Shown in pieces: positions 34,701 to 61,585 of a stretch of DNA of 64,000 nt (positions are counted from its first letter, which is position 1; each line of letters starts with the position of its first letter). The notes beneath the pieces are model-generated. The model made no database searches. It was not told the DNA's origin and saw only the letters and a list, made by a program, of their open reading frames with translations. The DNA is from Anaerolineales bacterium (GTDB lineage Bacteria > Chloroflexota > Anaerolineae > Anaerolineales > E44-bin32): assembly GCA_034430425.1 (NCBI GenBank), contig DAOUEK010000007.1:1090-65089 (forward strand), read 5' to 3'. The translations under genes were made by a program, and so were the position numbers.

Positions 34701-34947
34701 CACCTGCCCATTCGGCATCCCTGAAATGCGTTACGACCAATGCGGTGTAGGACAACTCGGCGGAGCGGCCTGGATCGATCCGGCTCGCTGCCATGGTTGT
34801 GGAACCTGCTCGGCGGAATGTCCGGCCCGCGCCATTCAACTCATACAATATCGCGACGAGCAAATCAATTCTGCCCTCGGACAGTGGGTGCCCGACCTGC
34901 CGGTGGGGAATGAAACACAATCCCAATCCTTGAGGCTCGAGGAGTAA
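31723..34947 (+). CDS. hdrA: HdrA-family flavoprotein with two FAD modules and ferredoxin-like domains (no NAD(P)H-binding insert)
   Basis: Two GGGVxGM FAD motifs, WLQCIGSRD..YCSSICCMYATK, VNLREHCSWVH, C-terminal CTGCLTCVRTCP and CHGCGTCSAECP. Confidence 0.9.
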   Translation: MPGDCRPFPSNGREKAESVLVIGGGVGGMRAAIDLAEAGIHTYLLEHTPSLGGRVSQLGFMFPTHDCVLCRGTSDHGFGCTRPSITPALLDQNKHPNITILTSTDLISFEGQAGDFRVTLGERAKIVNPSLCINCGRCAEVCTQVRPSEFQLGLSTRKTIDKSAPRSLPNAYYILEKSDYCDDCRKCLAVCPTQAIDLDAQPRNHEIHVGAVILAMGFQPFDPSSMPELGYGRIPNVITSMQYERLASRSGPTEGIVRRISDGEVPKRIAWLQCIGSRDQVNPYCSSICCMYATKEAMLAKQRDSSIDCHIFTMDERAFNKEYNQYYRQARDDFGIHYTRCRISSIDEDPSTGEAILRYPSGRMHGESSPGQGRVQEARFDLIVLAVGIRPPKGAIDIAKKLGIAINEYGFCETDKFSPLATSRPGVFVCGAFASPKEIAETILDASGAAAEAMRIMHDHLGENTFSRAQPFLTTLDPVQEMEADHLDPKIGVLLCGCAGEISQVIDLHKVADFARTLPAVDQVEIHPLACLEDGQAQLQRMVTEGKVNRIVIAACSHRMHEPLFQRLASEAGLNPYWIEIVNLREHCSWVHGNDPKGATRKARELLRIGVERVRQADTIHKFQRQPNRAALVIGGGVAGMTSALGIADAGFEVHLVEKSGELGGNLHHIYFVAENANPQRLLRDLVNRILSHKRITLHLHSQIVHHTGSVGDFRARIRTVNGDDTYQEREIRHAAVIVATGGQEANADRYLLGQDPSILRMSELEEMLAHQPERITRLKSVVLIQCVQPKGEEEYCSRICCTNTIKNASRLKMLNPQCQVIILYKNIITYGFREKYYLDVRKRGVLFVRYTDATPPRVRLEKRNDGMKTVVEVDEHIFGRTLVFEPDMIALSMSIQPSVGTSKLAQVLGVPKSQEGFFLESHLKMRPMEFYDEGIFLAGMAHYPKFIEETITHAMACVGRALTILSRPSIQLGGVVAEIDPQRCTGCLTCVRTCPFGIPEMRYDQCGVGQLGGAAWIDPARCHGCGTCSAECPARAIQLIQYRDEQINSALGQWVPDLPVGNETQSQSLRLEE

Positions 34948-35030
34948 AGTGAAGGATAAGCTTCGTGACTTCCCATCCCACTCTCGCCCTGTCCTTCCTC
35001 CTTCAAGGTAGAGAACATCGAGTTTGAGAA

Positions 35031-35258
35031 GTGAAAAGTGCAGACACACAACTCAGACAGCAATATCTCGTTGAGCTGGATGAAACGCTCTGCGATGGAT
35101 GTCGTAAATGCCTGCCTGTATGCAGCTTTAGGGCATTAACTTGGGTGCGCGCCGATAATGAGCTGCTGATCGACACCTGGGCGTGCACTGGATGCGGGAC
35201 CTGTCTGACAGTGTGTCCCCAAAAAGCACTTACACTTCAACCCAGAGGCTCCAAATGA
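35031..35258 (+). CDS. 2x[4Fe-4S] ferredoxin
   Basis: CDGCRKCLPVC and CTGCGTCLTVCP motifs. Confidence 0.9.
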   Translation: MKSADTQLRQQYLVELDETLCDGCRKCLPVCSFRALTWVRADNELLIDTWACTGCGTCLTVCPQKALTLQPRGSK

Positions 35259-35704
35259 CTCCTGCTGATGATTTCTCGCCCGAAATCACTGTCTTCTCAT
35301 GCATATACTGCGCATCTATGGCCGCCGATACCGCCGGCGCATTACGCCTCGAATATCCCGCCAACATAAAGATCATCCGCCTGCCCTGCACAGGCAAGAC
35401 CGACGTGCAATACCTTCTCAACGCCTTTGAAGAAGGCGCCGATGGCGTTTACATCGTTGCCTGCAGCATGGGTAACTGTCACCATGAGCGGGGCAACGAG
35501 CGTGGATACGCAAGAGTGCAACGGGCAAAGAGCCTGTTGGAACAAATCGGCATCGAACCGGAGCGGTTGGAGATGTACTTCGTTTCAGGCGGTATGGGAG
35601 CTACCTTCGCCGAGATCGCCCGGGACATGACCGAACGCATTCGTGAACTTGGTCCCAATCCACTTAAGAAGAACTCGCCTCTACCCCAAAAAGAGCAAGC
35701 CTGA
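35255..35704 (+). CDS. mvhD: MvhD-family [2Fe-2S] subunit, Cys form
   Basis: FSCIYC, RLPCTGK, GADGVYIVACSMGNCHH; ATGA overlap with the ferredoxin stop. Confidence 0.92.
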   Translation: MTPADDFSPEITVFSCIYCASMAADTAGALRLEYPANIKIIRLPCTGKTDVQYLLNAFEEGADGVYIVACSMGNCHHERGNERGYARVQRAKSLLEQIGIEPERLEMYFVSGGMGATFAEIARDMTERIRELGPNPLKKNSPLPQKEQA

Positions 35705-45948: not shown

Positions 45949-46014
45949 GAGTTCCCCCTCCCTTCATAGCAGCGAATTGATTTCCCCCTTTTACTGATTT
46001 AGTAAACCCATACG

Positions 46015-46030
46015 TGTAAGATTCGTTACA
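46015..46030. promoter_or_regulatory. Putative CRP/Rex-like inverted repeat TGTAA-N6-TTACA upstream of hdrL1
   Basis: TGTAAGATTCGTTACA in the AT-rich divergent intergenic region. Confidence 0.4.
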
Positions 46031-46256
46031 TATTGTCTGGACAAATTTATGGTGAAAAAAACGACGAAGACGAACCGGATGCATCACAACACAACAAGAT
46101 CAGCGAACTTACCTTCAAAATCGGACGAGGTTTATCCACTCTGCAGGTGACATCCTGCACTGCCCCACAATCCCCCCTGCTCCTATCATTATTCCATACC
46201 GAATCTCGTCGCAGAGCGCAAGAAAATCAAGCGCTCCCAGCCCACGGGAGGGGCCC

Positions 46257-49200
46257 TTGTCATCAAAGCAAAGGGCGCAGGCAGACCCCCTCGATCGGGC
46301 CCAAAACGACCCGCCCGCTCCCGTCGGAGCGGTCTTGGTCGTCGGCGGTGGCATCGCCGGCATGCAGGCCAGCCTCGATCTGGCCGACCAGGGCTACAAG
46401 GTCCACCTGGTGGAGACGAAGTCCGCCATTGGCGGACACATGGCACAACTCGATAAAACGTTCCCCACGAACGATTGCGCCATGTGCACCATCAGCCCGA
46501 AACTCGTCGACATCGGCCGCCACCTCAACATCGATCTGCGCGTCGACACCGACGTACTCAAAGTCGATGGCCAGCCCGGCGATTTCACGGTCACCCTGCG
46601 TCATAAACCTCGCTACATTGATCCCTTAAAATGCGTCGGTTGTGGTGATTGCGTCGATGTCTGCCCGGTCGTGCTGCCCGACCCGTTCAATGAATCGCTA
46701 TCCTCGCGCCGCGCGGCGCACAAGCTGTACCCACAGGGCGTTCCCAACGCATTTGCCATCTCCAAATTGGGCATCTCTCCCTGCCGCGATGCCTGCCCTG
46801 CCGGCCAGCGAGCCCAGGGTTACATCGCCCTGATCCGCGAAGGCCGCTACGATGACGCCCTGCGCGTGATCAAGGAGGACAATCCCTTCCCCGGTATATG
46901 CGGCCGCATATGCAACCACCGCTGCGAAGATGCCTGCAATCGTGGCCTGATCGACGAGCCGATTAATATCCGCGCTTTGAAACGCTTCGTGACCGATAAG
47001 GTCTACCAGAATCCTCGCCAGGTGCGCGAACCCGTCGAAATCACCCGGAAAGCAAAGGTAGCTGTGATCGGCGCCGGACCGTGCGGCCTGACCGCCGCAC
47101 AGGATCTGGCCATGCTGGGTTATCCGGTTACTGTTTTCGAGGCGCTGCCCGTCGCCGGCGGAATGCTGCGCGTCGGGGTGCCTGAGTATCGCCTGCCGAC
47201 TGAGATCATCGAACGCGAGATCGCCGACATCCTCGACCTGGGCATTGATTTGAAACTCAACACCACGGTTGAGGACATGGATGAGTTATTCGACCAGGGC
47301 TATGAGGCGGTGCTCGTCGCGGTCGGCGCCCATGAGGGGATCCGTCTGCCGATCCCGGGCGCCGACCTTGAGGGCGTTCTGATCAATACCCGCTTCCTGC
47401 GCGATGTCCGCCTGGATAACCCGCCGGCGATCGGCGATCGTGTTCTTGTACTCGGGGGCGGTAACGTGGCTATCGACTGCGCCCGTACCGCCGTACGCAT
47501 GGGCGCCGAAGTGCACATGGCATGCCTCGAGCCGCGCGACAACTTGCCCGGCCATGCCTGGGAAGCTGATGCTGCCGAAGAGGAAGGCGTGGTCATTCAT
47601 GCTGACCGCACTTTCATCCGCATCGTCGATGACGGCAGCGGGCACGCGGCCGGCGTGGAATGCGCACAGGTCGCCCACTTTGATTTCGATCATGAAGGTC
47701 GCTTATCGGTTGAGACAGTTCCCGATTCGGAGCATGTGATCGAAGCGGGCACGATCATTTTTTCCGTTGGTCAGCGCGCTGGTCTGGCTTTCATCCCCGA
47801 TGACGCCGGTGTGGGCGTCACCGCCCAACGCACTATAGCCATCAACCCCAACACCATGGCTGCCACACGACCGGGCGTTTTCGCCGCCGGTGACAGTGTC
47901 TCTGGCACAGCGTTCGTGATCGAAGCCGTGGCCTCCGGCCATCAGGCGGCCGAAAGCATCCATCGCTATTTGCGCGGCGATGAACTCGAGCCGGAGCCCA
48001 AACCCGAACTGCCGGTGGTGAAGTTCAGCCACACCGAGCTTCAGGCGCGTGTTCGCTCCGGTGAGATTAAGCCCACGGGACGGATCCCATTGCCCGAGCT
48101 TCCCGTCGAAGAGCGTAAGGGCTGCTTTGCCGAAGTCGAAGGCGGCTACAGCGACGAAGCGGCGCAAGCCGAAGCAGCTCGCTGCCTGGCCTGTGCGCTG
48201 TGCTCCGAATGTCTCTCCTGCCAGTATATCTGTGGGCGCGACGCCATCAATCACGACGAAGTAGCATCGATCGAGCAGCTGCGTGTGGGTGCGGTGATCC
48301 TGGCCCCCGGCTATGAAATCTACAACGCCGAGCTTTCAGCCGAGTACGGCCTGGGACGCTACCCCAACGTGATTACCGCCTTGCAGCTTGAGCGTTTGCT
48401 TTCTGCCTCCGGTCCTACAGCAGGGCATGTCAACCGGCCCTCCGATGGATCACCGGCGAAGAAGGTGGCTTTCCTGCAGTGCGTCGGCTCGCGCGACAAA
48501 AGTCATGACTACTGTTCCTCAGTATGCTGCATGTACGCCGCCAAAGAAGCGATCATGATCAAAGAGCACGATCCCGAAGCCGAAGTGCACGTGTTCATGA
48601 TGGACATGCGCGCCTTCAGCAAGGGATACGAAAGCTACTACCGCCGCGCCCAGCAGCAATACGACATCCAATACACCCGCTGCAGGGTCTCCGAATTCAA
48701 AGAAGACCCGGACAGCCAGGACATCGTGGTTCGATACGCGAGTCAATCTCCCACAAATGGAAACGGAGTAACTGGCTCCAAGTCGCTGACCCCTGGGTTA
48801 TTGATCAGCGAAGAACACTTCGACCTGGTCGTGCTCTCCGTCGGCATGGAAATATCCGAAAACGTGAAGGCCCTGGGTCGAGATCTCGGTATCCAGCTGG
48901 ATGAATACGGCTTTTGCCATACGGCATTCTTCAACCCATTGGAAACCACCCGCCCGGGGATCTACGCCGTCGGGCCCTTTCGCGAACCGAAGGACATCCC
49001 TGAATCGGTGGTGGACGCCAGCGGCGCCGCAGCGCGGGCTGCCGGCTTGCTCGCCTCCGCACGCCACTCGCTTACCAGCTCACCGGAATACCCACCCGAG
49101 CGAGACGTAACAGGAGAAGATGCGCGCGTAGGCGTCTTCGTCTGTCACTGCGGCTCAAACATCGGCGGTTTTCTGGACGTGCCCAGCGTAGCCGAATACG

Positions 49201-50879
49201 CCAAATCGCTGCCCGGCGTGGTCCACGCCGAGGACAACTTGTACACCTGTTCGCAGGACACTGTGGCGCATATTACCGAGACGGTAAAAGAAATGAATCT
49301 CAATCGTGTCGTCGTTGCCTCCTGTACGCCGCACACCCACGGCCTGCTCTTCCAAGACTGCATCCGCGCGGGTGGGCTTAATCCGGCATTGTTCGATATG
49401 GCCAACATCCGCAATCAATGCTCCTGGGTGCACTCCCACGACAAGCAAGCCGCCACGAGCAAGGCGCGTAGCCTCGTTCGAATGGCCGTGGGCCGTGTGA
49501 TCACACTGGAACCGATCCACACCAGCGAAGTTGAAATCGAACACAGCGCGCTGGTGGTCGGCGGAGGGGTCTCGGGCATGACGGCTGCCCTTTCCCTCGC
49601 CGAGAACGGCTTCGATGTCCATCTGGTCGAGCGGGAAGGACAGCTGGGCGGCAATTTCAACAAGGTGCACTATACCGTAAGCGGCGATGAGCCGCGCGAA
49701 CTTTTGGAAACCCTGATTGCCGATGTCGAGGCGGAAACCCGGATTAAAACCTATCTAAACCATGAAGTAGTCCACACCGACGGATTCATGGGAAAATTCA
49801 CCACCACACTGCGAGATCGAAAAGGGGAAACGCAGGTCGCACACGGCGTGACCATCATCGCCACCGGCGCCCAAGAGTATCACGGATCAGAATACGATTA
49901 CGAGAACAACCCGCGTGTGGTCACCGGTCTGGAATTGGAAGCGCTGCTTGCCAGAGCGCATGGATCCAACATCGATCTCGAAGATCGCGCTGCCGAAGCC
50001 TGGGAAGCGATTGGCAGACAGCTTCCCGCTGAAGTGGCGATGATCTTGTGCGTAGGTCCGGCAGAGCGCTTCTGTGCACGCCTGTGCTGCACCACGGCCT
50101 TGAAACAAGCCTTGACGATCAAGCGTCTCAAACCCGAGGCGGTCATCACGGTACTTTACAAAGACATCCGCACGTATGGCTTCAAGGAATCGCTCTACAC
50201 CGAGGCGCGTGGGGCCGGGGTTCGCTTCGTTCGCTACGACGACGACAACCGACCTGTCGTACGAAGTGTTGAGGCAGGATTGGAAATCGAAATCCGGGAT
50301 CACGTCTTGGGTGAAAACCTAACCTTGTATCCGGGCTTGCTCATGTTAAGCACACCGGCCGTGCCGGCCGAGGGCTCGCGTGAGTTGGCCTCCAAATTCA
50401 AAGTCTCACTCGATCAGGACGGATTCTTCATGGAAGCGCACATTAAACTGCGCCCGGTGGATTTTGCCTCCGACGGCTATTTCATGGCCGGCATGGCACA
50501 TTATCCCAAGTTCGTCGACGAGAGCATCGTCCAGGCTCAGGCGGCCGCCTCGCGTGCCGCGCGTATCATCTCTCGCCCCACGCTGACGGCAGGTGGCGTG
50601 GTTGCCCAGGTCGACCCAACGAAATGTGTCGGCTGCCTGACATGCGTTCGCGTCTGTCCTTATGGTGTGCCCAGGGTGATACCCAATACAACCGGCGTGG
50701 GGGAGATCAGCGGGGCAGCGTATATCGAACCCACGGTTTGCCACGGCTGCGGATCGTGCGCTTCCGAGTGCCCCGCCAAGGCCATCAGCGTCATCCACTA
50801 TCGTGACAACCAGATTACAATCAAATTGGATGCTTTACTGTCGGAGACATTTGATGATAAGGTCAAGGAGAAGGTGTAG
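46257..50879 (+). CDS. hdrA: HdrL-type large HdrA (two HdrA FAD modules plus GltD/NfnB-like NAD(P)H-binding insert), copy 1
   Basis: LDKTFPTNDCAMC; CRDACP..CGRICNHRCEDACNR; GAGPCGL; GGGNVAID; FLQCVGSRD..CSSVCCMYAAK; C-terminal 2x[4Fe-4S]. Confidence 0.93.
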   Translation: MSSKQRAQADPLDRAQNDPPAPVGAVLVVGGGIAGMQASLDLADQGYKVHLVETKSAIGGHMAQLDKTFPTNDCAMCTISPKLVDIGRHLNIDLRVDTDVLKVDGQPGDFTVTLRHKPRYIDPLKCVGCGDCVDVCPVVLPDPFNESLSSRRAAHKLYPQGVPNAFAISKLGISPCRDACPAGQRAQGYIALIREGRYDDALRVIKEDNPFPGICGRICNHRCEDACNRGLIDEPINIRALKRFVTDKVYQNPRQVREPVEITRKAKVAVIGAGPCGLTAAQDLAMLGYPVTVFEALPVAGGMLRVGVPEYRLPTEIIEREIADILDLGIDLKLNTTVEDMDELFDQGYEAVLVAVGAHEGIRLPIPGADLEGVLINTRFLRDVRLDNPPAIGDRVLVLGGGNVAIDCARTAVRMGAEVHMACLEPRDNLPGHAWEADAAEEEGVVIHADRTFIRIVDDGSGHAAGVECAQVAHFDFDHEGRLSVETVPDSEHVIEAGTIIFSVGQRAGLAFIPDDAGVGVTAQRTIAINPNTMAATRPGVFAAGDSVSGTAFVIEAVASGHQAAESIHRYLRGDELEPEPKPELPVVKFSHTELQARVRSGEIKPTGRIPLPELPVEERKGCFAEVEGGYSDEAAQAEAARCLACALCSECLSCQYICGRDAINHDEVASIEQLRVGAVILAPGYEIYNAELSAEYGLGRYPNVITALQLERLLSASGPTAGHVNRPSDGSPAKKVAFLQCVGSRDKSHDYCSSVCCMYAAKEAIMIKEHDPEAEVHVFMMDMRAFSKGYESYYRRAQQQYDIQYTRCRVSEFKEDPDSQDIVVRYASQSPTNGNGVTGSKSLTPGLLISEEHFDLVVLSVGMEISENVKALGRDLGIQLDEYGFCHTAFFNPLETTRPGIYAVGPFREPKDIPESVVDASGAAARAAGLLASARHSLTSSPEYPPERDVTGEDARVGVFVCHCGSNIGGFLDVPSVAEYAKSLPGVVHAEDNLYTCSQDTVAHITETVKEMNLNRVVVASCTPHTHGLLFQDCIRAGGLNPALFDMANIRNQCSWVHSHDKQAATSKARSLVRMAVGRVITLEPIHTSEVEIEHSALVVGGGVSGMTAALSLAENGFDVHLVEREGQLGGNFNKVHYTVSGDEPRELLETLIADVEAETRIKTYLNHEVVHTDGFMGKFTTTLRDRKGETQVAHGVTIIATGAQEYHGSEYDYENNPRVVTGLELEALLARAHGSNIDLEDRAAEAWEAIGRQLPAEVAMILCVGPAERFCARLCCTTALKQALTIKRLKPEAVITVLYKDIRTYGFKESLYTEARGAGVRFVRYDDDNRPVVRSVEAGLEIEIRDHVLGENLTLYPGLLMLSTPAVPAEGSRELASKFKVSLDQDGFFMEAHIKLRPVDFASDGYFMAGMAHYPKFVDESIVQAQAAASRAARIISRPTLTAGGVVAQVDPTKCVGCLTCVRVCPYGVPRVIPNTTGVGEISGAAYIEPTVCHGCGSCASECPAKAISVIHYRDNQITIKLDALLSETFDDKVKEKV

Positions 50880-51000
50880 GTTCTTATTACCATCCTTCGA
50901 CTTCACCTTCGGTTCCACTTAGGATGAATAGAGATCGCTTGATTTATTAGCGGTTGCGGAAAAAGATTAATAGATCATTGAACAGGATCAGGAAGGGAAT

Positions 51001-51477
51001 ATGGCCGAATTCGAGTCGCAAGTCGTCGCTTTTTGCTGCAGCCACTGCGCCTACAACGCTGCCGATCTCGCCGGCAGCCTGCGTATTCAGTACCCGGCGT
51101 CGATAAAAATCATCGAAGTGCAGTGCACCGGGCGTGTAGATATCGAACACATGCTCCATGCTTTCGAAGGCGGCGCCGACGGCGTAATGGTTGCGGGTTG
51201 AATGCCCGGCGACTGTCATTACCTGGAAGGTAATACAAACGCAAGACGACGGGTGGAATTCGCCCGCAAACTTTTGGAAGAAATCGGTCTCGAAAGCCAG
51301 CGGCTGCAGATGATCAACATATCCGCCGCCATGGCTGGCGAATTTTCCTTTGCCGCGGCAGAGATAACGGCAGAGATTCAACGTCTGGGACCCAATCCAC
51401 TACGTATCAACGGCGCCGGACAATCCGACGGTAATGCACCCGCCGTTGAGATAGCGAAAGCGGATGGCGAAAGTTGA
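51001..51477 (+). CDS. mvhD: MvhD-family subunit, selenocysteine form, copy 1 (in-frame UGA 51199-51201)
   Basis: ORFs 51001-51201 and 51202-51477 are in frame and read GADGVMVAG-UGA-MPGDCHY; UGA aligns with the Cys of the 35255 paralog. Confidence 0.93.
51214..51237 (+). other. Putative bacterial SECIS element (TGTCATTACC-TGGAA-GGTAATACA)
   Basis: Hairpin starts 12 nt after the UGA; 9-bp stem with one bulge; G-containing apical loop. Confidence 0.8.
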
Positions 51478-52657
51478 TTCCCTCAAACGCTTCGATGTTT
51501 TCGCAGAGCTTCCCGAGGATGCTCTGATGGAAATTTCGCGCCTGGCCAAACAGGAAGAACATCCTGAAGGAACGGTTCTTTTTCAGGAAGGTGCCACAGC
51601 GCATCAACTCTACCTGATATTGGATGGCAAGATCTCACTCGAGATGCTCGTGCAATTGGGCAGCACAGGCACACCCCGTCGCGCGGCGCTTAATATCGCC
51701 GGCCCAGGCAACGCCGTCGGCTGGTCGAGTATTGTCCCTCCCTATCTCTACACATCCTCCGGTGTGTGTATTGAAGATGTCAACCTGCTGACACTTCCCG
51801 GCGAAGATATACGCAGCTATATTACAGAACATCCCGACATCGGATGTGCAATTTACCAGCGTACGGCATCCTTGATCCGCGGACGAATGAGTAATGCCAC
51901 ATCGATGCTGATGTACTTCCTCTTCATCGTCTCCCATGAATTGAAACGACCCCTGGCCGCTGTGGAAAACTACCTGCAAATACTGTCCGGCGGTTATGCC
52001 GGCGAACTCAGTCCCAAACAAACCCACCTGATCGAACGTAGTACGCTGCGCATCGCCGACCTGCGCAACCTGATCAGCGACATTCTCGATTTCGCCCGCA
52101 TGCAGCCCGAGCAGATTCGCGCAGACTTCGAAAGTCTCGATCCGACTGAGCTCGGCGCCGAAGCGATCGAGGAAGTACGCTTGGCGGCGTCAGAGAAGAA
52201 CGTGCAGCTCAAAGTCATCGGGCCAACTGAATATCGGCCCATCGTCGTCGCTCGACGCCGGCTGCGGCAAGTCATCGCCAATATCCTGGCCAACGCAGTC
52301 AAGTTTTCCCCCGAGGGGAGCACCGTCACCCTAACCGCCCATGACACACCTAAAGCCCTGGTAATCGAAGTGATGGACGAGGGTATCGGCATCCCTGATG
52401 ATGAGCAGGAACACATATTCGATGATTTCTTCCGCGCCAGCAACGTGGGCGAATTCAGGGGCGCCGGCCTGGGTCTCTCCATCGCATATAAAATCATCGA
52501 AGCCCATGAGGGCTCGATCGAAGTCAAGAGCCCCTACGAAAAAGCGAAACCCGGAACCAAGTTCACCATCACCATCCCTCGGACGCTCCCTCTGCCTGGT
52601 CAGAGTAGGAAGTCTGAGCCCGGAACCCATGAGGAGAGGGGGGGATCACATGCGTGA
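51464..52657 (+). CDS. Soluble histidine kinase with N-terminal cNMP-binding (CRP-like) domain
   Basis: LFQEG...LYLILDGKISL cNMP fold; SHELKRPL; NAVKFS; DEGIGIP; GAGLGLSI. Overlaps the mvhD stop. Confidence 0.9.
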   Translation: MAKVDSLKRFDVFAELPEDALMEISRLAKQEEHPEGTVLFQEGATAHQLYLILDGKISLEMLVQLGSTGTPRRAALNIAGPGNAVGWSSIVPPYLYTSSGVCIEDVNLLTLPGEDIRSYITEHPDIGCAIYQRTASLIRGRMSNATSMLMYFLFIVSHELKRPLAAVENYLQILSGGYAGELSPKQTHLIERSTLRIADLRNLISDILDFARMQPEQIRADFESLDPTELGAEAIEEVRLAASEKNVQLKVIGPTEYRPIVVARRRLRQVIANILANAVKFSPEGSTVTLTAHDTPKALVIEVMDEGIGIPDDEQEHIFDDFFRASNVGEFRGAGLGLSIAYKIIEAHEGSIEVKSPYEKAKPGTKFTITIPRTLPLPGQSRKSEPGTHEERGGSHA

Positions 52658-53414
52658 GCAACCATATATTTTGATCGTGGACGACGATCCGGATATCGTC
52701 GAGGGGATTACCGCCGTGCTGGAAACGCGAGACTACCGCCTTGCCAGCGCTGGCGATGGCATTGCCTGCATGAAACTTATCCGGGAGAAGACCCCAGATT
52801 TATTGATCCTGGACATGATGATGCCGCGCATGGACGGTTTCGCCGTCATCCGCGAGCTTCGCGGCGATCCGAAGTATGTTGGTCTGCCCATCATTATTCT
52901 CACCACGGTCATTGAAGATGCCGCCTACCGCCGCTATGAACTTGAGACAGGGCTGGCTATGGATGTGCAAGCCTATATCGAGAAACCGGCACCGCCGGAT
53001 GTGTTGCTGCGCCACGTCACAGCGGTAGTCGATCTGCCCTATATTATTGTCGCCGATGACGACCCGGATATCGTTGCCGCGCTTACCACGGTCCTTGAAT
53101 CCAGGCCCTATCGGGTCAGCTCGGCCGCCAACGGTCAGAGCTGCATCGAACTGGTGCGCAAGCGCAAACCCGATCTACTCATCCTGGATTTACTCATGCC
53201 GCACATGGATGGTTTTGCCGTGATTCGCGAGCTGCGCAGCGAACCCCAATTTACCGATCTACCCATCATCATCCTCACTACCGTGGTTGAAGATGCCAGC
53301 CGCCGGCGTTACGAACTCGAGACGGGTCAGGACATGGCTGTTACACGATACATGCAGAAACCCGTGCCACCCAAGATGCTGCTCAAGCAAGTGAATGAGG
53401 TGTTGAAAAAATGA
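52650..53414 (+). CDS. Tandem REC-REC response regulator without output domain
   Basis: Two near-identical receivers (VDDDPDI..LLILDMMMP..EKP and ADDDPDI..LLILDLLMP..QKP); GAGG-rich RBS before ATG 52650. Confidence 0.9.
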   Translation: MREQPYILIVDDDPDIVEGITAVLETRDYRLASAGDGIACMKLIREKTPDLLILDMMMPRMDGFAVIRELRGDPKYVGLPIIILTTVIEDAAYRRYELETGLAMDVQAYIEKPAPPDVLLRHVTAVVDLPYIIVADDDPDIVAALTTVLESRPYRVSSAANGQSCIELVRKRKPDLLILDLLMPHMDGFAVIRELRSEPQFTDLPIIILTTVVEDASRRRYELETGQDMAVTRYMQKPVPPKMLLKQVNEVLKK

Positions 53415-56400
53415 GCGCGGACAAGGTCACCGGCGCAGTGATGGTCGTAGGCGGCGGTGTCGCCGGCATGCAGGCCAGTCTCGATCTGGCCGAGCAGGGA
53501 TTCCGGGTATTCCTGGTGGAAAGCCAGTCCGCCATCGGCGGTCACATGGCCAAACTGGACAAGACATTCCCCACCAACGACTGTGCCATGTGCATCATCA
53601 GCCCCAAGCTGGTTGAAACCGGTCGTCACCTCAACATCGACTTGATGGTTGACAGTGAAGTCGATAAGGTCGATGGGCAAGCGGGAGACTTCACCGTTAC
53701 CGTGCGGCGTAAACCGCGCTACATCGACATCGAGAAATGCGTTGGATGCGGAGATTGCGCTGAAGTGTGTCCGGTCGTGCTCACCGATAGGTTCAACGAA
53801 GGTTTGGCACCGCGCAAGGCGGTCTACAAACTCTATCCACAGGCGGTCCCCAATGCCTACACGATCGACAAGTTGGGCATTGCCCCTTGCCGCAACGCCT
53901 GTCCCGTCGATCAACGCGCCGAGGGTTACATCGCATTCATTGCAGAAGGCCGCTACCGCGAGGCCTACCGTGTGATCAAGGAAGACAATCCCTTCCCCAG
54001 TGTGTGTGGACGCACCTGCCATCACCCTTGCGAAGGCCACTGCGCTCGCGCCCTAGTCGACGAGCCGGTGAGCATCATGGCCCTGAAACGCTTCGTGATG
54101 GATTACGCCCTGGCCTACGGGCGCGAGAAAGTCGAACCCGTACCCCGCACACGACCGGAGTGGATCGCCGTGGTCGGTGCTGGGCCAGCCGGATTAACCG
54201 CCGCCCACGACCTGGTGAGAATGGGGTACGGCGTGACGGTCTACGAAGCGCTTCCCGTCGCCGGCGGGATGATGCGCGTCGGCATCCCCGCTCATCGTCT
54301 GCCCAAGGGCGTTTTACAGGACGACATCGACGACATCCTCGCGCTGGGCGTGGTGCTGAAAACCAACTCGCCGATTTCCGATCCCACGAAGTTGCTTAAG
54401 GAAGGTTACGACGCCGTTTGTCTGGCGACGGGGATTTCCACCCGCGATCATTCGTTGACCGTGGAAGGCGAGGACGCCGAGGGTGTACTCTCCGCAGCGA
54501 CCTTCCTGCGCAAAGTCAACCTGGGAGAACCGATCACCGTCGGCGAGCGCGTAGCTGTGATCGGCGGCGGCGTGACCGCCCTCGACGCAGCCACCGTTGC
54601 CCGACGTCTGGGCGCGGAAGAAGTTATCCTGGCCTACGACCGCCCACGCGGCGAGCTACCCGCCTACCAGTGGGAAATGGACGCCGTCGAAGCTGAAGGC
54701 ATCCGCCAGCTCGAACACACAACACTGACGCGCATCCTGACCAAAAACGACAGGGTGGTCGGTGTCGAACTGGCCCGCACCGGCCGCGGTACGACTAAAG
54801 ACAAACATGGCCGCCGACGCCCCAAGATCGAAGCCGGCAGCGAATTCACCCTCGAAGTCGATACCGTGATCGGTACCATCGGTCAGCAGTCCGACTTGAA
54901 CTACCTGCACCCTGCGTTCGAGGATCTAAACGGCGACAGCAGAACGCTGGCTTGTGAAGACGCCCCCGGATTGTTCGTCGTCGGTGGGCGCAAGACCGGC
55001 GCCAGCTTCATCGTCGAAGCCATTGCCCTGGGACATCGCGTGGCGAAATCGATTCATCATTATCTACAGGGCACATTCGACAAAATGGAAAAAATCACAC
55101 CACCGGTGGTCAAAGTCACACGCGAGGACATCGAGCGCCGCGTTAAAACGGGGGAGATCGAACTGCTGCCGCGCAACGAATCCAGGCTGCTGCACATGGA
55201 CGAGCGCGTGACAAGTTTTCGTGAAGTGGTTTTGGGGTTGACCGAACGCCAGGCGCGCGCCGAAGCCAAGCGCTGCCTGCAGTGCGGGAACTGTTCGGAA
55301 TGCCTGGCCTGCGTCTATGCTTGTGGCGCGGACGCCATCGATCACGAGATGGTCGAGACCATCCAGGATGTAAAGGTCGGCGCCATCATCCTGGCTCCCG
55401 GTTACCAGACCTATCAGGCTGAACTCTCCGCGGAATACGGTTTGGGCCGCTATCCCAATGTGATCACCGCACTGCAGCTCGAGCGTTTGCTCTCCGCCTC
55501 CGGACCGACCACAGGGCACGTAGTGCGCCCTTCGGACGGGCGCCCGGCGAAGAAAATCGCCTTCCTGCAGTGTGTCGGCTCCCGAGATCAGAATCACGAT
55601 TACTGCTCGGCCGTATGCTGCATGTACGCCACCAAGGAAGCCATTCTGGTCCGAGACCATGATCCCGAAGCCGAAGTGGATATCTTCATGATGGACATCC
55701 GCGCCTTCAGTAAAGGCTACGATGCCTATTACCAGCGTGCCCGGGAACAATTCGACATCCAGTACACCCGCTGCCGAGCATCTGAATTCAAGGAAGCCCC
55801 GGACACCAAGAACATTACGATCCGATATACAGAAGAACAAGGTGTCGGGGTTCGAAACCAGCCTGATTCCGATTTGCCCGAAACACGCATAACCGAAGCG
55901 GAATACGACCTCGTCGTGCTGTCGGTGGGCATGGAAATTTCACAATCCGTTAAAGAGCTCGGCCAGAGATTGGGCATCGAGCTCGACGACTACGGTTTTT
56001 GCAAAACGGCTTTCTTCAATCCCGTTGAAACCTCACAGCCGGGAATCTACGCTGCGGGACCTTTCCGTGAGCCTAAAGACATTCCCGAATCCGTGGTCGA
56101 CGCCAGCGGCGCAGCGGGTCAAGCTGCAACGCTGCTCGCCTCGGCTCGTGACCAACTGACACGCCAGGCCAGTTATCCGCCCGAAAAAACGGTCGGCGAA
56201 CCACGTGTAGGCGTCTTCGTTTGTCACTGCGGCTCCAACATCGCCGGTTACATGGATATCGAAGCCGTCACGGATTACGCCGCCAATCTGCCGCATGTGG
56301 TCCATGCCGACCACATGCTTTACACGTGCTCGCAGGACAGCACGGCGCAGATCCAGGCTTGCATCGTCGAACACGATTTGAACCGCGTCGTGGTGGCTTC

Positions 56401-57973
56401 CTGCACACCGCGCACGCACGGCTCGCTCTTCCGTGACGTGGTGCGTCAGGCGGGTTTGAACGAGTACCTGTTCACAATGGCCAACATCCGCAACCACTGC
56501 TCGTGGGTACACTCGCATGAACCCGATATCGCCACAGAAAAGGCGCAGGATTTAATCCGCATGTCCGTCTCCCGCGTGGTGGGCCTCGAGCCGCTGCACA
56601 CGCAGCCGGTTCCGGTGTGCCAGCAGGCGCTGGTCATCGGCGGCGGTGTGGCAGGCATGAACGCCGCGCTTGCGCTGGCAGAACAGGGTTTCCCCGTCCA
56701 CCTGGTCGAGAAAGAAAAAACCCTGGGCGGCAATTTGCGCGGGGTCTATTTCAATCATGATCCTGGTGATTCGAACGCCGGGCGCGATCCCCAGAATTAT
56801 TTACGGACGTTGATCAAAGAGATTGCAACTCATCCTGCGATAACGACGCACCTATCGAGCCAGGTGCTTCACACCACAGGCTTCGTCGGCAATTTCATCA
56901 CCATGCTGCAGAAGGAAAACGGCAGCCAGGCGGAAATCCAGCACGGTGCCACAATCGTCGCCACGGGCGGCCAGGAGTATCGCGGGGAGGAATATGGTTT
57001 TGCGGAAAGCCCGTGCGTGGTCACTGGACTGCAGTTCGAGGCTCTGTTGGCCAAAACTGGCCGCAAACGGGTGAAACTCGACGAGAAAACGAGTGCGACC
57101 TGGAAGTTGTTAGATAAAAAACCGCCGGATCAGGTGCTGATGATCCAATGCATCGGCCCGGCGGAGGAGACATGCGCCCGCACATGCTGCACCACCGCCT
57201 TGAAACAGGCTCTGCAGCTAAAAGCCCTGCATCCCGAGGCGCGCGTCGTCATGCTGCATCGCGACATGCGTACGTATGGATTCAAGGAGCGTCTTTACAA
57301 GCAGGCGCTCGAGCAAGGCGTGCTTTTCGTGCGCTACGACCCGACGCATAAACCCCAGGTATCTATCAAGGCTGACGGCCAAGTCCACGTGAACGTGCAG
57401 GATCCCGTACTCGGTACGCCGTTGAACTTCAAACCCGACTTACTCGTGCTTTCCACACCTCTCATCCCGGCGAAAGAAAATCAGACGTTGGCCACGAAGC
57501 TAAAGGTGCCCGTCGATTTGGATGGTTGGTTCCTGGAGGCGCACGTCAAACTACGGCCGGTGGATTTCTCCAACGAGGGCATTTTCCTGGCTGGGGCTGC
57601 CCACTACCCCAAACTGCTCGACGAGAGTATCGTACAAGCCCAGGCGGCCGCTTCGCGGGCTGCAACCATCCTGTCCCGCCAGACCTTAGATGCCGGCGGT
57701 TCCGTCGCCCGCGTTGATCCTGAAGCCTGCGTTGGCTGCCTGACGTGCGTGCGCATCTGCCCATATGGTGTGCCGCAGATGCAAATTAATCTTACCGGGG
57801 TTGGTGGCATCGTGGGCGCGGCCTACATCGAACCCGCTGTTTGCCAGGGATGCGGGACATGCGTTGCCGAGTGCCCCGCCTACGCCATCGAACTGCTGCA
57901 TTATCGCCACGACCAGTTGGAGGATGAGGTGGGTGCCTTATTCGAAACGAAGATTGAAGTACGTGAAGGGTGA
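53411..57973 (+). CDS. hdrA: HdrL-type large HdrA, copy 2
   Basis: Same domain order as copy 1: LDKTFPTNDCAMC, CRNACP..CGRTCHHPCEGHCAR, GAGPAGL, CSAVCCMYATK, terminal ferredoxin motifs. Confidence 0.93.
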   Translation: MSADKVTGAVMVVGGGVAGMQASLDLAEQGFRVFLVESQSAIGGHMAKLDKTFPTNDCAMCIISPKLVETGRHLNIDLMVDSEVDKVDGQAGDFTVTVRRKPRYIDIEKCVGCGDCAEVCPVVLTDRFNEGLAPRKAVYKLYPQAVPNAYTIDKLGIAPCRNACPVDQRAEGYIAFIAEGRYREAYRVIKEDNPFPSVCGRTCHHPCEGHCARALVDEPVSIMALKRFVMDYALAYGREKVEPVPRTRPEWIAVVGAGPAGLTAAHDLVRMGYGVTVYEALPVAGGMMRVGIPAHRLPKGVLQDDIDDILALGVVLKTNSPISDPTKLLKEGYDAVCLATGISTRDHSLTVEGEDAEGVLSAATFLRKVNLGEPITVGERVAVIGGGVTALDAATVARRLGAEEVILAYDRPRGELPAYQWEMDAVEAEGIRQLEHTTLTRILTKNDRVVGVELARTGRGTTKDKHGRRRPKIEAGSEFTLEVDTVIGTIGQQSDLNYLHPAFEDLNGDSRTLACEDAPGLFVVGGRKTGASFIVEAIALGHRVAKSIHHYLQGTFDKMEKITPPVVKVTREDIERRVKTGEIELLPRNESRLLHMDERVTSFREVVLGLTERQARAEAKRCLQCGNCSECLACVYACGADAIDHEMVETIQDVKVGAIILAPGYQTYQAELSAEYGLGRYPNVITALQLERLLSASGPTTGHVVRPSDGRPAKKIAFLQCVGSRDQNHDYCSAVCCMYATKEAILVRDHDPEAEVDIFMMDIRAFSKGYDAYYQRAREQFDIQYTRCRASEFKEAPDTKNITIRYTEEQGVGVRNQPDSDLPETRITEAEYDLVVLSVGMEISQSVKELGQRLGIELDDYGFCKTAFFNPVETSQPGIYAAGPFREPKDIPESVVDASGAAGQAATLLASARDQLTRQASYPPEKTVGEPRVGVFVCHCGSNIAGYMDIEAVTDYAANLPHVVHADHMLYTCSQDSTAQIQACIVEHDLNRVVVASCTPRTHGSLFRDVVRQAGLNEYLFTMANIRNHCSWVHSHEPDIATEKAQDLIRMSVSRVVGLEPLHTQPVPVCQQALVIGGGVAGMNAALALAEQGFPVHLVEKEKTLGGNLRGVYFNHDPGDSNAGRDPQNYLRTLIKEIATHPAITTHLSSQVLHTTGFVGNFITMLQKENGSQAEIQHGATIVATGGQEYRGEEYGFAESPCVVTGLQFEALLAKTGRKRVKLDEKTSATWKLLDKKPPDQVLMIQCIGPAEETCARTCCTTALKQALQLKALHPEARVVMLHRDMRTYGFKERLYKQALEQGVLFVRYDPTHKPQVSIKADGQVHVNVQDPVLGTPLNFKPDLLVLSTPLIPAKENQTLATKLKVPVDLDGWFLEAHVKLRPVDFSNEGIFLAGAAHYPKLLDESIVQAQAAASRAATILSRQTLDAGGSVARVDPEACVGCLTCVRICPYGVPQMQINLTGVGGIVGAAYIEPAVCQGCGTCVAECPAYAIELLHYRHDQLEDEVGALFETKIEVREG

Positions 57974-57981: not shown

Positions 57982-58422
57982 ATGGCCGAAAATGGAAAAG
58001 ACCTGCAGATCGTCGCCTACTGCTGCCATCATTGCGCTTACGCTGCCGCAGATCTGGCTGGTGTGTTACGCATCCAGTATCCGGCGCAGACCAAGGTCGT
58101 CGAAATTCCCTGCTCCGGACGTTTGGATGTGCTCGAGGTGCTGCATGCCTTCGAACGCGGTGCTGACGGTGTAATGGTCGCCGGTTGACTGCCCGGTGAC
58201 TGTCATTACCTGGAAGGTAATGTTAACGCCAAACGTCGCGTGGAGAAACTCAAACAACTATTGGACTCGATCGGGCTGGAACCCGAGCGCGTGGAGATGT
58301 TCAATCTCTCCTCGGCAATGGCTGCACAATTCGCCGAAACGGTGAGGAACATGGTAGCGCAGATTCAAAGTGTTGGCCCGAGTCCCTTGCGGCTCGCTGC
58401 TGAGGGAATAACCGAACCATAA
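57982..58422 (+). CDS. mvhD: MvhD-family subunit, selenocysteine form, copy 2 (in-frame UGA 58186-58188)
   Basis: YCCHHCAY..IPCSGR..GADGVMVAG-UGA-LPGDCHYLEGN continues in frame into ORF 58240-58422. Confidence 0.93.
58201..58225 (+). other. Putative bacterial SECIS element (TGTCATTACC-TGGAA-GGTAATGTTA)
   Basis: 7-bp perfect stem CATTACC/GGTAATG; 21 nt identical to copy 1; same 12-nt offset from the UGA. Confidence 0.8.
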
Positions 58423-58485: not shown

Positions 58486-59172
58486 ATGATCATTGCAGAA
58501 CAAAAACCACTGGAGGAGATCAAGGCTTTGATCGCGGATGCCGAAAATGTATTGGTCGTTGGCTGCGGCACCTGCGTGACGGTATGCTTTGCCGGCGGGG
58601 AGAAGGAGGCCGGCATCCTGGCCAGCAGCCTGCGCATGTCGACCAAACTCGACGGCGGCCCCAAAGCTGTGGAGCATGTTACCGTGCAGCGCCAGTGCGA
58701 ATGGGAGTATATCGACCCCATCGGGGATCGTGTCGCTGAGGCAGATATGGTGCTTTCGATTGGATGCGGTATCGGTGTGCAGGCGCTCGCCGAACGCTTC
58801 CCGGATGCCATTGTCGTTCCCGGGTTAAATACCTCCTTCTTGGGCTTGCCTACGGAACAAGGTGTTTGGGAAGAACGCTGCGCCGCTTGCGGCGAGTGCA
58901 TCCTCGGATTGACGGGTGGAATCTGCCCCATTGCTCGCTGCGCCAAACAGCTGCTCAATGGACCTTGCGGCGGGTCGCAAAACGGTGTTTGTGAAATCGA
59001 CCCGGATACGCCCTGCGCCTGGCAGTTGATCTACGACAAACTGAAATCACAAAATCGTCTGCACCTGCTGACGGAAATTCAAGCGCCGAAGAACTGGTCC
59101 AGCAGCCGCGACGGCGGTCCTCGAAAAATCACCCGTCAGGATTTACGTCTGGCGGCGGAAGAATCTGAGTAG
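58486..59172 (+). CDS. metV: Methylene-THF reductase Fe-S/Zn subunit MetV
   Basis: GCGTCVTVC, RQCE, CGIGVQ, CAACGECIL..GICPIARCAKQLLNGPCGG..CE..CAW. Confidence 0.93.
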   Translation: MIIAEQKPLEEIKALIADAENVLVVGCGTCVTVCFAGGEKEAGILASSLRMSTKLDGGPKAVEHVTVQRQCEWEYIDPIGDRVAEADMVLSIGCGIGVQALAERFPDAIVVPGLNTSFLGLPTEQGVWEERCAACGECILGLTGGICPIARCAKQLLNGPCGGSQNGVCEIDPDTPCAWQLIYDKLKSQNRLHLLTEIQAPKNWSSSRDGGPRKITRQDLRLAAEESE

Positions 59173-59190: not shown

Positions 59191-60180
59191 ATGACAAAAA
59201 CATCGAGCAATGGATACAAATCCGGCTCTCGCCTGGAACGCCTGCTGCGCACCGGCGAATTCGTGGTCACCGGCGAGTTGGGCCCGCCGCAGGGTGCTGG
59301 CGGGGACGTCATCCGTGAGAAAGCTGTCCTGTTAAAAGGCGTAGTCGATGCGGTAAATATCACCGATAATCAGACTGCCATCGTACGCATGTCCTCGATT
59401 GGCGCCGGTACGATCACCGTGCAGGAGGGTGTGGAACCGATCATCCAGATGACCTGCCGCGACCGCAACCGTCTGGCGATCCAATCCGATCTACTGGGCG
59501 CCTACGCCCTGGGCATGCGCAACGTGCTCTGCCTGACCGGCGATCACCAATCCTTCGGCAACCACCCTACCGCCAAGAACGTCCATGATCTGGACTCGGT
59601 GACGTTGATCCAGATGGTAGTGAAGATGCGAGATGAAGGCAAGTTTGAATGTGGAGATGAAATGAAAGGGATCGAACCGCGCTTCTTCGTCGGCGCAGCG
59701 GCCAATCCCTTCGGCGATCCTTTCGAATTCCGCCCACTCCGTCTGGCAAAGAAAGTCGCCGCCGGCGTGGATTTCATCCAGACACAGTTGATCTACAACA
59801 TCGAACGCTTCGCCGAATACATGCAGAAAGTGCGCGAACTCGGCCTGCACGAGAAGGTATACATTTTGGCCGGCTTGGGTCCGCTGAAGTCTCCGGGCAT
59901 GGCGCGTTACATGCGCGATCAGGTGCCGGGCCTGGACGTACCCGATATCTACGTCGACCGCATGATCGAAGCCGCCAAGGGCATCGATAAAGAAGACAAG
60001 AAAGCCCGTTCCCAGGCCTGGCGTGAGGAAGGCATGAAAATCACCATCGAGCAGATCAAGCAGATGCGCGAGATCGAAGGCGTCGCCGGTGTGCACGTGA
60101 TGGCAATTGAATGGGAAGAGGCAGTCAAACCGATCGTCGAGGGCGCCGGATTGCTGCCGCGTCCGGAACCGGCGGCGTAA
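59191..60180 (+). CDS. metF: Methylenetetrahydrofolate reductase MetF
   Basis: ELGPP, NITDNQ, QMTCRDRNRLAIQSDLLGA, LTGDH, KKVAAGVDFIQTQ. Confidence 0.95.
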   Translation: MTKTSSNGYKSGSRLERLLRTGEFVVTGELGPPQGAGGDVIREKAVLLKGVVDAVNITDNQTAIVRMSSIGAGTITVQEGVEPIIQMTCRDRNRLAIQSDLLGAYALGMRNVLCLTGDHQSFGNHPTAKNVHDLDSVTLIQMVVKMRDEGKFECGDEMKGIEPRFFVGAAANPFGDPFEFRPLRLAKKVAAGVDFIQTQLIYNIERFAEYMQKVRELGLHEKVYILAGLGPLKSPGMARYMRDQVPGLDVPDIYVDRMIEAAKGIDKEDKKARSQAWREEGMKITIEQIKQMREIEGVAGVHVMAIEWEEAVKPIVEGAGLLPRPEPAA

Positions 60181-60190: not shown

Positions 60191-61585
60191 ATGGAGACAA
60201 AACTCAGCACCGATCTGGCCGAACGCATCCGGGAAGCCACCGGTGAGAACGTGTTCCTCTGTTATCACTGCGTGAAGTGCACCTCCGGTTGCCCCCTGAT
60301 GGAGCATTTCGACCTGGCGCCCAACCAGGTGATGCGCGCCGCTCAGTTGGGTATGGAAGACATGATCTTCGAGAGCAAATCGCCCTGGCTGTGCGCCTCC
60401 TGCCAGACCTGCACCACTCGCTGCCCGCAGGGCATCGACATCGCCCGTGTGATGGACTTTATCGTCGGCGAGGCGATGGCCAAAGGCATCAAACCCAAGG
60501 TGCCCGAAGTCGCCCTGTTTAACAAGGTCTTTTTACGCGACATCGACATACTGGGCCGCTCCTACGAGCTGGGGTTGATGGTCGAGATGAACATACGCAC
60601 CAGGCAGCCCTTCAAGGACGTCGGCCTGGGGCTAGACATGATCAAGCACGGCAAGATCGCCTTCCTGCCCTCCGTGATCCGCAAACGCAAGCCGAAGGCG
60701 GAAAAACCACCTCCAGAACGGGAGTCTAAAGAGGTTGGTTATTATCCCGGCTGTTCGTTACATTCCTTGGCCAGGGAGTTTAACCTCTCGGCATTGGCGA
60801 CGCTGGAAGCGCTCGATCGCAAGCCCGTGGAGCCGAAAAACTGGATTTGCTGCGGTTCTTCGCCCGCCCACCGCGTGGACCACGAGCTTGCGGTGCAGAT
60901 GCCGCTCGAAAGCCTGGCACTTTATGAAATGGAAGGCGTTAGCGAGGTTACCCTGCCCTGCGCCATGTGCTTCAACCGCTTCAGGGCCGCGGCGAGAGAA
61001 GTGCGCCTCGATCCCGAATTGAAACAGGAAATGGACCAGGAGTTGGGCTATGCGTATCAAGACAGCCTGGCGATATCATCGCTGCTGGATTACGTCGTCG
61101 AGAACATTGGCCTGGAAGCCGTAGCCGAGAAGGTCAAAAAGCCGCTCGCAGGGTTGAAAATTGCCTGCTATTACGGCTGCCTGCTAACCCGTCCACCCGA
61201 AATCACCGGATCGAAAGAACCGGAATACCCCATGTCCATGGACCGTTTGATGAAGGCGCTGGGGGCAGAGCCAATCGACTGGGACCGTAAAGTGTCCTGC
61301 TGCGGCGCGTCCCTGTCCCTTACGGCGACCGGCATCGTACTCGAAATGAGCGCTGATATCATCGAAAACGCACACGCCCGCGGCGCCGATCTCGTGGCCG
61401 TGGCCTGCCCGATGTGCCACGCCAATATCGACGGACGCCAGGTACAAATGGACATCACACAACCGGTCCCGGCGCTGTATTTTACCCAGCTGATGGCCCT
61501 GGCCTTCGGCATGCCGGAGGAAGCTGCGTTGAAATTCAACATGGTTGATGCGCGACCACTGCTGAAGGAACGAGGTTTCCTATAG
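60191..61585 (+). CDS. Fused HdrC-HdrB heterodisulfide-reductase-like subunit
   Basis: HdrC motifs CYHCVKCTSGCP and CASCQTCTTRCP, followed by two CCG domains (YYPGC..CCG..CAMC; YYGC..CCG..CPMC). AAGGAG RBS. Confidence 0.92.
   Translation: METKLSTDLAERIREATGENVFLCYHCVKCTSGCPLMEHFDLAPNQVMRAAQLGMEDMIFESKSPWLCASCQTCTTRCPQGIDIARVMDFIVGEAMAKGIKPKVPEVALFNKVFLRDIDILGRSYELGLMVEMNIRTRQPFKDVGLGLDMIKHGKIAFLPSVIRKRKPKAEKPPPERESKEVGYYPGCSLHSLAREFNLSALATLEALDRKPVEPKNWICCGSSPAHRVDHELAVQMPLESLALYEMEGVSEVTLPCAMCFNRFRAAAREVRLDPELKQEMDQELGYAYQDSLAISSLLDYVVENIGLEAVAEKVKKPLAGLKIACYYGCLLTRPPEITGSKEPEYPMSMDRLMKALGAEPIDWDRKVSCCGASLSLTATGIVLEMSADIIENAHARGADLVAVACPMCHANIDGRQVQMDITQPVPALYFTQLMALAFGMPEEAALKFNMVDARPLLKERGFL

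Follow-up and report, generated by a model that had tools for sequence, protein, structure and literature searches.

How a cell would read the in-frame TGA that interrupts an mvhD gene is the question raised by a 64-kb stretch of DNA from an Anaerolineales bacterium (contig DAOUEK010000007.1), the whole of which we refer to as the window. The gene, mvhD copy 1, encodes an electron-transfer subunit of the FrhD/MvhD/VhuD type, and its TGA at positions 51199–51201 might be a codon for selenocysteine (Sec), a genuine stop, a codon of a reassigned code or a mistake in the sequence. The original prediction held that this TGA sits exactly at a conserved cysteine position and is recoded with the help of a hairpin placed 12 nt downstream, which would act as a selenocysteine insertion sequence (SECIS). 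Our analysis agrees with this view, and we consider it very probable that the in-frame TGA is a Sec codon served by a functional SECIS.

mvhD copy 1 (51001–51477, plus strand) is best described as a single gene, 158 codons long and with codon 67 for Sec, rather than as two open reading frames (ORFs). Its frame runs from the ATG at 51001 to the in-frame TGA at 51199–51201, continues for 91 more sense codons and closes with a TGA stop at 51475–51477. When cysteine is substituted for the internal stop, the family model PF02662 (FlpD, methyl-viologen-reducing hydrogenase delta subunit) spans the product over its whole length (1–123 of 123, E 6.5e-48), and the wider motif around the recoded position reads V-A-G-U-M-P-G-D-C-H-Y-L-E-G-N. 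The anticipated splitting of the gene by ORF callers can be seen in the 99.2% identical contig CAYLOZ010000001.1 (GCA_964385395.1), where copy 1 appears as two separately called FlpD fragments, 66 and 91 aa long.

The residue expected at this position is well defined. In a 34-sequence alignment of the three mvhD copies of the window and 31 Cys-type homologues, the latter up to 70% identical, the TGA column is a nearly invariant cysteine (C67), so that the alignment check suggested beforehand came out in favour of the claim. In the solved structure of a Methanococcus VhuD (chain 9sfi_K), the corresponding segment reads VAGX KPNEC, with X, the Sec residue, on the column of the window TGA. From the homologue alignment and this chain we annotate the UGA at 51199–51201 (plus strand) as read as selenocysteine, residue 67, within the motif G-U-M-P-G-D-C-H-Y. 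Because C13, C42, C67 and C72 are the remaining conserved cysteines, we take them as putative ligands that bind the [2Fe-2S] cluster of MvhD; for residue 67, too, this role is putative. Two public protein records, P0002 and P0003, carry W at the Sec column; the locus of P0002 (L247) has TGA there, its caller having used a different code. A third record, P0001, has a genuine TGG at the second conserved cysteine on a contig of about 3x coverage, and was rejected as a second Sec site.

The site is not special to copy 1: the original prediction, tied to that copy, was right about it and too narrow in scope, as a second copy carries the same site. mvhD copy 2 (57982–58422, plus strand; 146 aa; PF02662 1–123 of 123, E 2.4e-49) has Sec at codon 69, encoded by a UGA in UGA-C context at 58186–58188 (plus strand), which falls in the same alignment column as 51199–51201. 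From the TGA to the GGTAAT stretch copies 1 and 2 differ at 2 of 36 bases, and the whole genes are 80% identical. Copy 2 is annotated in the GCA_964385395.1 contig merely as a 68-aa N-terminal fragment. A window-wide scan for same-frame ORF pairs joined by one TGA found no recoded gene beyond the two mvhD sites; the remaining TGA-joined pairs were dismissed either as junctions between genes known to be separate (acsD/acsC, acsE/malic enzyme, cbiO/Q/M) or as chance stretches out of frame.

To follow the codon across species we scanned one genome per species with the pattern GGNGTNNNNNTNGCNGGNTGANNNNNNGGNNNNTGYCAY, which fixes the TGA and leaves the 3' half of the hairpin and the wobble bases free; the resulting Sec-form counts come from at least 120 loci, and the figures given here hold among the matches listed. 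Of the 121 matches, 119 are genuine mvhD genes that have TGA at the codon and intact frames on both sides; they came from Anaerolineae and other Chloroflexota, Desulfobacterota, Peptococcaceae, Moorellaceae, Desulforudis, Desulfosporosinus and Thermodesulfovibrionia. This amounts to at least 118 distinct homologues in four phyla (Chloroflexota, Desulfobacterota, Firmicutes and Nitrospirota), a recurrence that chance, pseudogenes or sequencing errors could not produce. The closest relatives among named genomes are metagenome-assembled genomes (MAGs) of Anaerolineae, with about 77% nucleotide identity to an uncultured Anaerolineaceae bacterium (L021).

Two simple explanations of the interrupted frame can be judged on these data. 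If the TGA were a true stop, copy 1 would be a pseudogene or yield only a truncated 66-aa product, as gene callers, which terminate the ORF there, imply, and the sel genes not found in the window would fit such a view as well. The 91 downstream codons are, however, open and match the C-terminal half of PF02662, the TGA recurs in the paralog and in 118 distinct homologues of four phyla with intact downstream frames, and a truncated product would lack the conserved Cys72; we therefore regard this explanation as highly improbable. One might also suspect that TGC or TGT, each a single base away from TGA, was misread in sequencing or assembly, the more so as the related GenBank contig shows differences from the window at other places. 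Against this stand the identity of the TGA and the next 48 bases of copy 1 in the independent assembly GCA_964385395.1, the TGA in both Sec-type paralogs of the window and its presence at this codon in more than 100 other genomes, which leaves the chance of such an error practically negligible.

The codon that follows the TGA deserves separate attention. The ATG at 51202 noted in the original prediction is indeed present directly after the TGA of copy 1, and it could suggest a truly split gene, whose 66-aa N-terminal and 91-aa C-terminal peptides would be made apart and then assemble. A Shine-Dalgarno-like AGGAAGGG (50990–50997, plus strand; read from the sequence) lies ahead of the true start at 51001, whereas inspection of the sequence upstream of the ATG at 51202 found no Shine-Dalgarno-like site comparable to it. 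In copy 2 the codon after the TGA is CTG, and among the Sec forms only 6 of 118 have a start codon (ATG or TTG) there. For these last two reasons the ATG is put down to coincidence. As the residue at the TGA column is in addition needed as a conserved Cys or Sec, two separately made peptides seem a very unlikely outcome. A scan for promoters and terminators around mvhD copy 1 returned nothing above chance.

If UGA is read as selenocysteine, a SECIS should follow it, and the predicted hairpin is found in the sequence as described: it starts 12 nt past the TGA of copy 1, with the arms TGTCATTACC (51214–51223) and GGTAATACA (51229–51237) around TGGAA (51224–51228) and one bulged C. Folding and comparison place the putative SECIS element of copy 1 at 51209–51242 (plus strand), made up of a lower stem GCG (51209–51211) / CGC (51240–51242), a middle stem UGU (51214–51216) / ACA (51235–51237), the bulged C51217, and a core stem AUUACC (51218–51223) / GGUAAU (51229–51234) that carries the apical loop UGGAA (51224–51228). 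The element folded for copy 2 (58195–58230, plus strand) consists of a lower stem GGUG (58195–58198) / CGCC (58227–58230) and an upper stem CAUUACC (58204–58210) / GGUAAUG (58216–58222) around the same loop UGGAA (58211–58215).

The bacterial SECIS model describes a loop of 3–9 nt, an upper stem of 4–16 bp, a G in at least one of the two leading loop positions, a spacing of 16–37 nt between UGA and loop, and a minimum free energy of −7.5 kcal/mol or lower (PMC13188914). Both elements fit it: the loop UGGAA has 5 nt, or shrinks to the 3 nt GGA should the U-A pair close, with G at position 2 or, in the closed form, at position 1; the upper stem has 6–7 bp, with 3 extra pairs beyond the bulge in copy 1; and the apical loop lies 22 nt from the UGA in both copies. 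The minimum free energy over 48 nt amounts to −12.0 kcal/mol for copy 1 and −13.4 kcal/mol for copy 2, and copy 1 folded over 62 nt reaches −17.8 kcal/mol (z −2.6).

Comparison between Sec and Cys forms carries the case further. The stem is encoded by the codons of H-Y-L-E-G-N (cAU UAC Cug gaa GGU AAU), and for the stem to pair, the codons of His, Gly and Asn must have U as their wobble base. We compared 114 distinct Sec-form sequences with a set of 108 Cys-form genes having TGC or TGT at the codon, obtained from a metagenome scan with the same pattern and TGY in place of TGA. All six stem pairs form in 106 of the 114 Sec forms versus 2 of the 108 Cys forms; the His codon is CAT in 107/114 against 49/108, and the Asn codon AAT in 113/114 against 39/108. 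At the Gly codon the Sec forms have GGT (93), GGA (15) or GGC (6), while the Cys forms are spread over GGC (46), GGA (23), GGT (22) and GGG (17). Over the rest of the gene the G+C content at third codon positions is similar, with 0.64 for Sec forms versus 0.60 for Cys forms. Copy 3 of the window, a Cys paralog serving as an internal control, allows just 1 of the 6 pairs in the stem register.

The pairing is moreover kept through a compensatory change from UAC/GGU to UUC/GGA, by which the A-U pair becomes U-A: all 15 Sec forms with Phe (UUC) have GGA. In a 119-sequence alignment of Sec forms the pair column 23–33 holds AU in 97, UA in 16 and other combinations in 6 sequences, the last being Firmicutes sequences with a different hairpin. 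Seven Firmicutes Sec forms from Desulforudis, Desulfosporosinus, Moorellaceae and Peptococcaceae (L004, L040, L045, L056, L062, L085 and L121) carry a replacement hairpin, GCCACUA-UGU-UAGUGGC, at equal distance from the UGA, and their motif changes to H-Y-V-S-G-N. In the alignment, conservation is 90% or higher at the loop residues G27 and G28 and likewise at the C that follows the UGA. These patterns show a hairpin that Sec-form genes keep more closely than the protein sequence alone demands, and the proposal that it acts as a SECIS is supported both by its fit to the bacterial model and by its Sec-linked conservation with a compensatory change. As for the base after the Sec UGA, C (UGA-C) is found in more than 90% of the 119 Sec-form mvhD genes, and copy 1 of the window, with UGA-A, is an exception.

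Several observations weigh against a functional SECIS and a Sec codon. The amino-acid motif itself constrains most stem positions too, and clear two-sided covariation is seen in one stem pair only. The bare hairpins are borderline with respect to the −7.5 kcal/mol threshold (−7.3 for copy 1 and −7.8 kcal/mol for copy 2), and the minimal hairpin of copy 1, weak alone, reaches a z of just −0.5 over 42 nt against shuffles; because single-sequence folding does not single out the hairpin, the SECIS case was built on comparison. A search of the whole window against Rfam yielded nothing that reached the gathering score, and around the two sites no SECIS family turned up at E values up to 10, which is expected because bacterial SECIS sequences differ between gene families. 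When 40 ORFs were scanned with NCBIfam models, neither selA nor selB nor selD was found in the 64-kb window, and ARAGORN found neither a tRNA-Sec nor any other tRNA gene in it. Finally, the close Cys orthologues P0044, P0004, P0047, P0024 and P0065, together with P0001, carry the same hairpin.

The expectation that the hairpin is Sec-specific in every gene thus failed, and because close Cys orthologues carry it, the hairpin alone is no proof of Sec in an individual gene. Five such orthologues share the stem CAT TAC CTG GAA/GAG GGT AAT with TGC or TGT at the codon, and these five are found in the same gene contexts as well, either hdrL-mvhD-regulators or hdrL-mvhD-metVF. Loci of Cys orthologues with an intact SECIS-like hairpin are L242, L243, L245, L248 and L249. 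We compared stem retention with how similar each Cys protein is to its nearest Sec form, masking the motif residues: at 80% identity or more, 4 of 4 Cys forms had the full stem, and below 75%, 2 of 105. The stem in close Cys forms fits a remnant SECIS that may have been left after a recent Sec-to-Cys conversion; remnant elements of this kind after a Sec-to-Cys change have already been described (PMC1794560).

The same data bear on a read-through without selenocysteine, in which TGA would be translated under a reassigned code (as Trp or Gly) or by near-cognate suppression, with the hairpin incidental to conserved codons. The deposition of P0002 with W in spite of the TGA at its locus, and the hairpin in close Cys orthologues, speak in its favour. 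However, TGA is the stop of 24 of 50 window ORFs, that of mvhD copy 1 included, and the genetic code is therefore standard and not reassigned. Homologues have Cys at the column, not Trp or Gly, and Sec is found there in the solved VhuD; the compensatory change and the Firmicutes replacement hairpin are left unexplained by incidental codon conservation, and the stem decays in Cys forms with divergence from Sec forms. Such a read-through is thus hard to credit, and a selenocysteine codon in mvhD copy 1, as originally predicted, is backed by the complete PF02662 match across the TGA, the Sec/Cys column and the conserved hairpin.

According to the mechanism that we propose, the in-frame stem-loop with the core AUUACC / UGGAA / GGUAAU would act as a bacterial SECIS on the mRNA of both copies. 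It would bind SelB-GTP-Sec-tRNA(Sec) and deliver selenocysteine once the UGA enters the ribosomal A site, and read-through would give the complete MvhD protein, 158 aa long for copy 1 and 146 aa for copy 2, with Sec in place of Cys67. Residue 67 is presumably among the four residues that ligate the [2Fe-2S] cluster of MvhD, and this cluster hands electrons to the flavin of the adjacent HdrA/HdrL-type subunit; copy 2 is part of an HdrL-MvhD-MetVF-HdrCB methylene-tetrahydrofolate reductase module of the Wood-Ljungdahl pathway. The sequences themselves show the frame, the place in the MvhD family, the homologous site of the UGA and the SECIS anatomy with its link to Sec forms, and from them we infer SelB binding, the actual insertion of Sec, the cluster-ligand role and the presence of selABCD elsewhere in the genome. 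The use of Sec is documented in marine Anaerolineae (PMC5736913) and in other Chloroflexota (PMC13326102), and no tRNA-Sec was found by ARAGORN in the fetched homologue loci scanned, that is, all except L001.

Both copies directly follow an hdrA-type gene, as expected of this family. Directly upstream of mvhD copy 1 lies its partner, hdrL-type gene 1 (46257–50879, plus strand; 1540 aa), in which HdrA-like and GltD-like NAD(P)H/FAD modules are fused and accompanied by ferredoxin domains (Pfam Pyr_redox_2, Fer4_20, FAD_oxidored and Fer4). The upstream partner of copy 2 is hdrL-type gene 2 (53411–57973, plus strand; 1520 aa; Pfam match), which encodes a protein identical to one in GCA_964385395.1. 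Both hdrL ORFs of the window are uninterrupted, and both are giant HdrA/GltD-type fusions of the HdrL kind known from Desulfobacterium autotrophicum. Downstream of copy 2 follow the methylene-tetrahydrofolate reductase genes metV (58486–59172) and metF (59191–60180), both on the plus strand and matched by Pfam (metV/metF: PF12225 and PF02219), and an hdrCB-like fusion with 4Fe-4S dicluster and CCG domains (60191–61585, plus strand; Pfam, gene call from the GCA_964385395.1 contig). Between the two hdrL genes lie a histidine kinase with a cyclic-nucleotide-binding (cNMP) domain (51464–52657) and a double-receiver response regulator (about 52650–53414).

The window is a Wood-Ljungdahl locus. Its genes for CODH, ACS, acsD, acsC, acsV and a methyltransferase start at 14942, 16960, 19360, 20380, 21866 and 24666, respectively. 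Altogether 14942–25589 holds a full acs/CODH carbonyl-branch set, comprising acsA, acsB, acsD, acsC, acsV, a cooC-like ATPase and acsE, and a cobalt energy-coupling factor (ECF) transporter (3987–6449, minus strand) adjoins it. mvhD copy 3 (35255–35704, plus strand; NF045873 VhuD, E 1.4e-41), the Cys paralog with TGC at 35462–35464 and the motif VACSMGNCHH, belongs to a third Hdr unit (31723–35704) that consists of a gene for a 1074-aa HdrA-like protein (31723–34947) upstream of it, a small 2x[4Fe-4S] ferredoxin ORF ending in an ATGA overlap and the Cys-type mvhD itself. The occurrence of Sec and Cys mvhD paralogs within one genome is reminiscent of the Vhu/Vhc selenium-backup arrangement.

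Some further observations concern the remaining parts of the window. Mismatches to the GCA_964385395.1 contig (L001) are concentrated, 139 of 150, in the bins covering 46000–47500; between 46257 and 47500 the two sequences are 89% identical and differ at 138 nt but at only 26 aa. This cluster looks like strain-level mosaicism or an assembly join and does not look like conversion from the paralog, which is 64% identical. A run of 10 N in the L001 contig, near window position 48557, splits hdrL-1 into two gene calls. Lastly, a ResA-like thiol-disulfide oxidoreductase (3326–3901, minus strand; WASWCPPC) and a CopZ-like protein (14597–14932, plus strand) gave weak matches to NCBIfam models of Sec-containing relatives (WAxxUGC and UxxU); both ORFs are free of internal stops, and the ResA-like one has Cys at its motif.

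A selenocysteine codon in mvhD has practical consequences. Through the fragment annotation in the GCA_964385395.1 contig, the electron-transfer subunit of two Hdr-type complexes is missing when the metabolism of this Wood-Ljungdahl organism is reconstructed, and the same miscall is likely in more than 100 species of Chloroflexota, Desulfobacterota, Firmicutes and Nitrospirota. The motif UGA(C)-N18-AUUACC-UGGAN-GGUAAU offers a simple signature by which miscalled mvhD genes may be rescued. Sec in mvhD would also imply a selenium requirement of the Hdr/MetVF modules. A joint reading, which we put forward tentatively and hold to be possible rather than probable, goes further: a selenolate ligand on the [2Fe-2S] cluster of bifurcating HdrL-MvhD(-MetVF) modules would make the Wood-Ljungdahl pathway's methyl branch partly selenium-dependent in an Anaerolineae bacterium, with the Cys paralog at 35255–35704 as a possible selenium-independent alternative, as in Vhu/Vhc. 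The SECIS, a single sequence locked into the H-Y-L-E-G-N codons, nearly constant over four phyla and kept in recent Cys converts, might then allow a Sec/Cys switch by one base (TGA to TGC or TGT, and back) without rebuilding the element.

Among the systems most similar to the window copies is a protein of solved structure, VhuD of Methanococcus maripaludis (9sfi chain K), the Sec-containing delta subunit of the F420-non-reducing hydrogenase. Like the window copies it belongs to the PF02662 family (E 1.5e-37) and has Sec at the column of the window TGA; it differs from them in a second Sec at the Cys16 column (second X, in CYQX), where the window copies have Cys, and in partnering with a [NiFeSe] hydrogenase, which is absent from the window. 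VhuD is archaeal, and an archaeal SECIS is expected in the untranslated region, not inside the coding sequence. The [2Fe-2S] cluster of this VhuD feeds electrons to HdrA (PMC13518236). Another such system is Desulfobacterium autotrophicum HRM2, which has four Sec-containing mvhD genes (MvhD1, 2, 3 and 5) beside hdrA/hdrL; as in the window, these bacterial genes lie directly after hdrA or hdrL, an HdrA-glutamate-synthase fusion, and Sec and Cys paralogs coexist in one genome (PMC2702500). Desulfobacterota homologues from our scan share the SECIS core of the window. Unlike the Anaerolineales locus with its uninterrupted hdrL ORFs, D. autotrophicum belongs to a different phylum, and some of its HdrA/HdrL partners also contain Sec.

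The cluster around copy 2, hdr-mvhD-metV-metF-hdrCB near acs/CODH, resembles the HdrCBA-MvhD-MetVF complex of Moorella thermoacetica and the loci of marine Anaerolineae (DscP3, An-B22), and the hdr-mvhD-metVF cluster of both has been described with Sec in mvhD not mentioned for Chloroflexi (PMC5736913). It differs from the M. thermoacetica complex in that the HdrA partner is a 1520-aa HdrL-type fusion; a Moorellaceae MAG (L056) carries the TGA with the alternative hairpin. The experimentally defined SECIS of Escherichia coli fdhF shares with the window elements the position of the stem-loop, which lies within the coding sequence a short way 3' of the UGA, the essential G in the apical loop and the common bacterial SECIS model (PMC13188914). 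There is no sequence similarity between them, the window loop UGGAA sitting on an A/U-rich stem of 6–7 bp for which SelB binding is presumed.

FrhD/MvhD/VhuD was the third-largest bacterial selenoprotein family already in a 2006 survey (PMC1794560) and is listed among the selenoprotein families in a 2026 review, according to which MvhD with Sec occurs in sulfate reducers and methanogens only (PMC13188914). The mvhD of the window is thus an ordinary member of a long-known selenoprotein family that uses a known bacterial mechanism. Modestly new are the explicit, near-universal SECIS signature of the mvhD family together with its retention in recent Cys converts, and the occurrence of Sec-form mvhD in Chloroflexota, Firmicutes and Nitrospirota, which extends beyond the sulfate reducers and methanogens named in that review.

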